Shown one piece after another: positions 60,627 to 60,740 of a stretch of 64,000 nt of DNA (within the stretch, counting starts at the first letter, position 1; each line of letters opens with the position of its first letter). The translations under genes were made by a program, and so were the position numbers. Source of the stretch: Escherichia coli. GTDB taxonomy: Bacteria; Pseudomonadota; Gammaproteobacteria; Enterobacterales; Enterobacteriaceae. Under the pieces are notes generated by a model that was not told where the DNA came from, did no database searches, and saw nothing but the letters and a program-made list of their open reading frames with translations. Location: NCBI RefSeq assembly GCF_003334785.1, contig NZ_QOWV01000001.1, one strand, 5' to 3'.

Positions 60627-60740
60627 CTAAAAATAAAACACATAGATCAGATCCATAATTGCCAACAATCCCCAGAGAAAAAGATAAAGCATCAGATGCT
60701 CGCGAATATTATTGATGAGATAGTGCAACAGCCGACGCAT
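60627..60740 (-). CDS. yceO: Very small hydrophobic protein YceO (37 codons in this sequence)
   Basis: Minus-strand [40 protein letters not shown]; below ORF-track cutoff, hand translated. Confidence 0.55.

Follow-up and report, generated by a model that had tools for sequence, protein, structure and literature searches.

The characterized small inner-membrane modulators of Escherichia coli include MgrB, MgtS, AcrZ, and CydX, which are paired with PhoQ, MgtA, AcrB, and cytochrome bd, respectively. Other hydrophobic peptides of similar size, e.g., Ibs, Ldr, ShoB, and TisB, are type I toxins, which are typically patchy in their distribution and multicopy. YceO stands alongside MgrB, MgtS, and CydX in Table 1 of PMC12529367 (Mol Cell Proteomics, 2025), and that paper reports that a chromosomal YceO-SPA fusion gives a band on immunoblots, that YceO is positive in top-down mass spectrometry (MS), and that a 46-aa ORF driven from pBAD24 is expressed, with its N-terminal peptide being detected. 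It places chromosomal YceO, by estimate, at least 10,000-fold below the level reached from pBAD at 0.002% arabinose and gives no YceO tryptic peptide for the wild type.

A phenotype has also been reported for YceO, as for many other small membrane proteins, in this case in acid shock. PMC12997748, citing Hobbs et al. 2010, names it an “acid stress small protein,” PMC8765455 annotates it with a role in the acid stress response, and the literature attributes to its deletion an acid-shock survival phenotype. The yceO entries in the supplement of PMC10746267, a Ribo-seq study, place it among the previously known sORFs; in one of its two rows there, log2 fold changes of -0.08, -0.23, and +1.07 are paired with 0.66, 0.29, and 0.59, which we read as significance values. 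On that reading, none of the fold changes in these entries is significant, and hence yceO expression shows no acid response in this data set. The gene is further mentioned only in passing, as mutated in strains evolved for motility, as a Tn-seq hit for gallium tolerance, and as down-regulated in UPEC during bladder infection.

The ORF studied here lies in a stretch of E. coli DNA of 64,000 nucleotides (the window) and is yceO itself, i.e., a small-protein gene that has already been annotated and experimentally detected. An earlier, sequence-only reading of this DNA had described a minus-strand ORF of 37 aa at 60627-60740, placed it between yceJ and solA, and labeled it “yceO-like.” The ORF extends from ATG 60740-60738 through 37 sense codons to TAG 60629-60627, with a translation that agrees letter for letter, and both neighbors were located where they had been placed, on the same strand. 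The label can be sharpened: its K-12 counterpart (b1058), the names used in RefSeq PGAP, and a full-length Pfam match identify the ORF as yceO proper. In K-12 MG1655, the same locus is yceO, b1058 (NP_415576), with 141 nt and 46 aa, and in PGAP-annotated RefSeq genomes the CDS is exactly 114 nt and is named “YceO family protein” or “DUF2770 family protein.” Two public models thus coexist for the gene (window 60627-60767, minus strand; 2808-2948 in locus L016), namely, 141 nt/46 aa in MG1655 and 114 nt/37 aa in PGAP (WP_001253418.1 and WP_000336806.1). The six-frame ORF runs 27 nt beyond ATG 60740 to an in-frame ATG at 60767, and the resulting 46-aa form is the 37-aa form preceded by MRPFLQEYL. 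The K-12 counterparts of ATG 60740 and ATG 60767 are at positions 1119420 and 1119447, respectively.

Pfam PF10968 (DUF2770) is matched at all model positions (1 to 36 of 36; E = 3e-22, 78.7 bits), the aligned residues being 10 to 45 of the 46-aa form and 1 to 36 of the 37-aa form, while an NCBIfam scan with both forms recovered 0 families. Of 5426 complete E. coli genomes, 5425 contain a match to a 501-nt query around yceO, and the median number of places per genome is one. Literature searches under the names b1058 and DUF2770 returned nothing relevant among the matches listed. Set against the described YceO/DUF2770 family (PF10968), the ORF has the same sequence, the same position between solA and yceJ, and the full-length Pfam match; only the gene model differs, with 46 aa in K-12/UniProt and 37 aa in the conserved family, the Pfam model, and PGAP. 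As yceO was already known and experimentally validated, the identification is correct but adds no novelty.

Table 1. Features of the solA-yceO-yceJ region, in window coordinates
Feature	Position	Strand	Remarks
yceJ, annotated form	59800-60366	-	downstream of yceO, followed by yceI
yceO CDS, conserved 37-aa form	60627..60740	-	sequence, RefSeq 114-nt CDS, Pfam, and codon-level purifying selection
Predicted transmembrane segment, codons 16-37 (22 residues)	60630..60695	-	W23 and D30 invariant; L22 nearly invariant
Basic N-terminal segment, codons 1-15	60696..60740	-	N11 and R13 invariant; N10 and H15 near-invariant
9-codon N-terminal extension of the 46-aa K-12/UniProt model	60741..60767	-	ATG 60767-60765; b1058 annotated with 141 nt
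Shine-Dalgarno AGGAG	60747..60751	-	6 nt upstream of ATG 60740
solA intrinsic-terminator-like hairpin	60754..60779	-	8-bp GC-rich stem, 60779-60772/60765-60758; 6-nt loop; then 4-5 U (UUUUU)
solA	60788-61906	-	upstream neighbor of yceO

The gene order in the window is pyrC-dinI-bssS-solA-yceO-yceJ-yceI, with trhO (yceA) convergent. The product of solA is N-methyl-L-tryptophan oxidase, which we take to be a soluble flavoenzyme. The yceJ six-frame ORF (59800-60441, minus strand) begins at a TTG at 60441 and would encode 213 aa, while the annotated YceJ, a cytochrome b561 homologue, starts at ATG 60366 and has 188 aa. Among 1.84 billion representative proteins, a profile search recovered 57 members of the DUF2770 family, the named ones coming from Escherichia, Klebsiella, Citrobacter, Cedecea, Enterobacter, and Edaphovirga, all Enterobacteriaceae. 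In the nine loci where yceO directly adjoins solA, amino acid identity to E. coli YceO is 51 to 84%. Outside Escherichia, the solA-yceO spacer is 46 to 57% identical to that of E. coli, under a forced global alignment, versus 63 to 72% for the ORF.

Selection on the frame was analyzed in ten divergent loci, including those from Escherichia, Klebsiella, Citrobacter, Cedecea, and Edaphovirga; L003 and L004 were left out because they appear chimeric. Across all ten, the yceO frame contains 0 stop codons, versus 13 to 32 in the other five frames, and pairwise differences at codon positions 1, 2, and 3 are 0.41, 0.22, and 0.57, i.e., third > first > second. The pN/pS ratio is 0.45 in the yceO frame, versus 0.67 to 1.93 in the other five, and with a pS of 0.70 synonymous sites are near saturation; none of 300 column shuffles was as low (mean, 0.91; standard deviation, 0.12). 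The reading frame is under purifying selection. Conservation at the codon level, beyond that of the DNA, had been named beforehand as one check on the ORF, and ribosome profiling or epitope tagging as another; both come out in favor of a real gene, the former through the absence of stops, the order of the codon positions, and the pN/pS ratio and the latter through the chromosomal YceO-SPA immunoblot and top-down MS of PMC12529367.

The gene lies directly 3' of solA in nine loci, and in Edaphovirga (L014) a single gene for a GerE-type regulator is inserted between the two. The bssS-solA-yceO order is kept in L007 and L012 although yceJ-yceI is missing, and yceO is intact, under the same constraints, in all three loci without yceJI (L007, L012, and L014, the last with different surroundings). 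Because it is retained where yceJ-yceI was lost and also in Edaphovirga, yceO is selected in its own right and not as an appendage of yceJI. In L007 and L012, yceO abuts the convergent trhO directly: in L007, whose YceO belongs to a Klebsiella protein cluster, it overlaps the trhO 3' end by 15 nt (1600-1614), and in L012 trhO begins 3 nt past the yceO stop (1617-1620). The overlap and the 3-nt gap leave no space for a separate yceO terminator in these two loci. Taking these findings together, we propose, with a probability of roughly 0.8, that yceO is a real, translated gene, conserved across Enterobacteriaceae, which encodes an inner-membrane protein of about 37 residues with a single helix.

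L003, a metagenome contig with yceO at 1501-1614, is identical to E. coli through the 3' end of solA, the spacer, and the first ~17 yceO codons and beyond about codon 17 switches to a sequence near that of the more divergent L015, so that it must be a recombinant allele or else a chimera of assembly. In a second contig, L004 (yceO at 944-1057), the protein is identical to that of L003. Some E. coli genomes carry in-frame length variants at window positions 60678-60689 (minus strand), i.e., codons 18 to 21 (CTT TAT CTT TTT), where the hydrophobic segment begins: P0036 has LYLYLF and P0052 has LYLYLYLF in place of LYLF, and P0010 lacks two residues. These variants suggest that a CTTTAT-like hexamer undergoes slippage. 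In a few genomes (P0054, P0067, P0091, P0097, and P0098), the allele is frameshifted or truncated.

The choice between the two gene models rests on the start codon. The Shine-Dalgarno sequence ahead of ATG 60740 is predicted to form an anti-SD duplex of -6.9 kcal/mol, versus -1.7 kcal/mol for the 20 nt preceding ATG 60767, which is without a Shine-Dalgarno sequence of its own, and L005 and Citrobacter (L009) share the AGGAG found ahead of ATG 60740. ATG 60767, in turn, is part of the solA terminator hairpin, its letters being divided between the loop and the 3' arm. The non-coli Escherichia loci L005 and L006 carry an additional T ahead of the core ATG, which creates an in-frame stop 27 nt upstream of it and makes the extension impossible there. 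In other genera, the upstream sequence forms a different hairpin and the N-terminal extensions called by gene finders are mutually unrelated, while the core always starts with M-[RIQY]-[RQA]. The Pfam model and the PGAP CDS both begin at this second Met (ATG 60740). RNA accessibility modeling did not separate the two starts (mean unpaired, 0.52 versus 0.41). On this evidence, the 37-aa form from ATG 60740 is likely the main native product, and the nine-residue extension probably lies outside the native protein.

The alternative is that native E. coli YceO is the 46-aa protein from ATG 60767 or that both starts are used. In its favor, E. coli has an open frame that includes this ATG, the curated K-12 gene spans 141 nt, the A and U of the ATG are unpaired in the hairpin loop, and PMC12529367 reports expression of the ORF from pBAD24 and detection of its N-terminal peptide. 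That the 46-aa ORF was made and detected from a plasmid means that the extension is not intrinsically untranslatable; however, the plasmid carries its own ribosome-binding site, and the result is hence uninformative on native initiation. Nor can the targeted MS of that study tell the starts apart, since neither targeted peptide, including the one from the core, was seen in the wild type. Given the weak anti-SD pairing, the location of this ATG in a terminator hairpin, the stop in L005 and L006, the dissimilar upstream regions in other genera, and the start shared by Pfam and PGAP, we regard native use of ATG 60767 as doubtful. The coexistence of two models is thus a curation point on which the comparative evidence favors the shorter. 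The choice bears on the design of tagged and overexpression constructs and on the selection of peptides for targeted MS: if the 37-aa reading is true, assays of the N-terminal peptide of the 46-aa form in the wild type, or overexpression of that form, measure a non-native species.

The solA hairpin alone folds with -14.5 kcal/mol, and a GC-rich hairpin is present in the solA-yceO spacer of all nine solA-adjoining loci, 13 to 30 nt before the yceO start, with a sequence that is not conserved and a U-tract that is usually imperfect. The solA hairpin is revealed by folding but went uncalled in a terminator scan, probably because just 4-5 U follow the stem. A promoter scan of 60200-61200 found no sigma-70-like promoter on the minus strand that could serve yceO. 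The sole sigma-70-like match in that region, at 60443-60472 on the plus strand (TTGAAT-18-AATAAT), lies in the AT-rich spacer between yceO and yceJ, in the orientation opposite to both genes, and is aimed at yceO; it is within chance expectation, with 1 match found versus 2.6 expected per region. Most simply, yceO would be transcribed mainly by read-through of a leaky solA terminator hairpin 18 nt upstream, which would explain the very low abundance of YceO. We lean slightly, at odds only a little better than even, toward the combined view that the 46-aa K-12/UniProt model is mis-started, that the native protein has 37 aa, that the extension is a by-product of the solA hairpin, and that YceO synthesis is set by the frequency of terminator read-through.

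A protein with these properties also invites comparison with the type I toxins, in which case YceO would be a hydrophobic peptide of the Ibs, Ldr, ShoB, or TisB kind, silenced by an antisense RNA. Like them, it is small, hydrophobic, and barely expressed at the basal level, and the opposite-strand match at 60443-60472 could be taken for the promoter of such an RNA. However, that match, the one antisense promoter-like sequence near yceO, is no more than chance would yield, and no Rfam sRNA accompanies it. Unlike these toxins, yceO is single-copy, with one place each (median) in 5425/5426 genomes, and its synteny is fixed across genera. Overexpression is apparently tolerated, as the excerpts of PMC12529367 describe 2 h of induction at arabinose concentrations of up to 0.2%, followed by harvest for immunoblot or MS, and mention no toxicity, and the literature describes the deletion as costing stress resistance, i.e., as a loss of function. 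A type I toxin reading is thus unlikely, and we leave it only a very small probability.

We give still less credence to the view that yceO is a regulatory leader ORF for the downstream yceJ-yceI operon, its peptide being irrelevant. The gene is co-oriented with yceJI, and a conserved direct repeat follows its stop codon; however, a 260-nt spacer separates it from yceJ, its peptide sequence is conserved, with N11, R13, W23, and D30 invariant, and it is kept in the three loci that lost yceJI. The tight coupling to the downstream gene and the unconstrained peptide that mark a leader are both lacking in yceO.

The spacer between yceO and yceJ has conserved elements of its own. The direct repeat, CTGACATAAACTGACA (YTGACR-N4-YTGACR, with a 10-bp period), lies at 60602-60617 on the minus strand, 9 nt past the yceO stop. 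Its pattern has a single match in the window, versus 0.12 expected by chance. One copy is found in the same place in every fetched locus with yceJ-yceI downstream (Escherichia, Citrobacter, Cedecea, and L015), as well as in three short contigs that end before the position of yceJ (L003, L004, and L011), and it is absent from the three loci without yceJI (L007, L012, and L014). The repeat is probably an operator or a tandem -35 element for yceJI. A second conserved block, at 60399-60428 (minus strand), stands out in a spacer that is otherwise poorly alignable: GTTGCAAT and ACGCCATTTT, which lie within ~35 to 65 nt ahead of the yceJ ATG, are recognizable, if partly imperfect, across the aligned genera. 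This block may be a proximal yceJ promoter or 5'-UTR element.

The weakest alternative, that the ORF is noncoding and owes its conservation to an RNA or DNA element (a solA 3' UTR, an sRNA, or an operator) in which the open frame is incidental, could appeal to the shortness and AT richness of the ORF, to its site just past a terminator, where 3'-UTR-derived sRNAs often arise, and to the extremely low protein level given in PMC12529367, but it has next to no probability left and is ruled out by the codon-level test, in view of the frame-specific substitution pattern with 0 stops in 10/10 loci, the amino acid motifs kept although synonymous sites are saturated, the detection of tagged YceO in the same study, and the lack of an Rfam family match, the sole match in a scan of both strands of 60000-61200 having E = 0.32 and 16.5 bits against a gathering threshold of 60 bits.

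The protein encoded by the conserved frame combines a basic N-terminal segment with a hydrophobic one. Residues 16 to 37 have a mean Kyte-Doolittle value of +2.05, and AlphaFold2, run with a 20-sequence alignment, predicts one continuous helix over residues 2 to 36 (mean pLDDT, 94); the sequence-only reading had taken the ORF for a single-TM small membrane protein, and both predictions fit that description. Of the 10 orthologues, 9 carry a net charge of +1 to +3 in their first 15 to 16 residues, the exception being that of Cedecea colo (L013), with 0, and none of them has a basic residue (K/R) after position 16. By the positive-inside rule, this positive N-terminal charge and the lack of basic residues beyond position 16 would place the N terminus in the cytoplasm and the C terminus at the periplasmic face.

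Conservation within the N-terminal part centers on a juxtamembrane motif, NN-x-R-x-H. Of the conserved residues, those in the membrane segment (Y19, L22, W23, L26, D30, and Y33) fall inside a 100-degree arc of the helical wheel, while the helical conservation moment over the whole helix, as a measure of a one-sided interaction face, is not significant (P = 0.09); the one-sided stripe of conservation is hence only suggestive. The sequence-only reading had noted that small proteins of this type often serve as regulatory partners of membrane complexes, a role that YceO may have. By analogy with other membrane proteins of ≤50 aa, we propose that the helix of YceO would bind a larger protein of the inner membrane by packing, with its polar residues as the points of contact, namely, those of the juxtamembrane NN-x-R-x-H motif, Trp23, and the intramembrane Asp30, of which Asp30 is likely to be key, and this packing activity could contribute to survival of acid shock. 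The four invariant residues (N11, R13, W23, and D30) are the obvious targets for mutagenesis. A search of PDB sequences at E values of up to 10 returned no chain resembling YceO, and it is accordingly not seen as a subunit of a solved complex.

How far, then, does YceO resemble the modulators named at the outset? It is without sequence similarity to MgrB, MgtS, AcrZ, or CydX, and it lies outside any membrane-complex operon, its conserved neighbor being solA. Its general build, in contrast, is theirs: like these proteins, it has ≤50 aa, one predicted transmembrane helix, and conserved polar residues on a hydrophobic helix, together with a low abundance and a stress-linked phenotype. The likeness extends to the stress itself in the case of MgrB, which figures in the same acid-shock list as YceO in PMC12997748.
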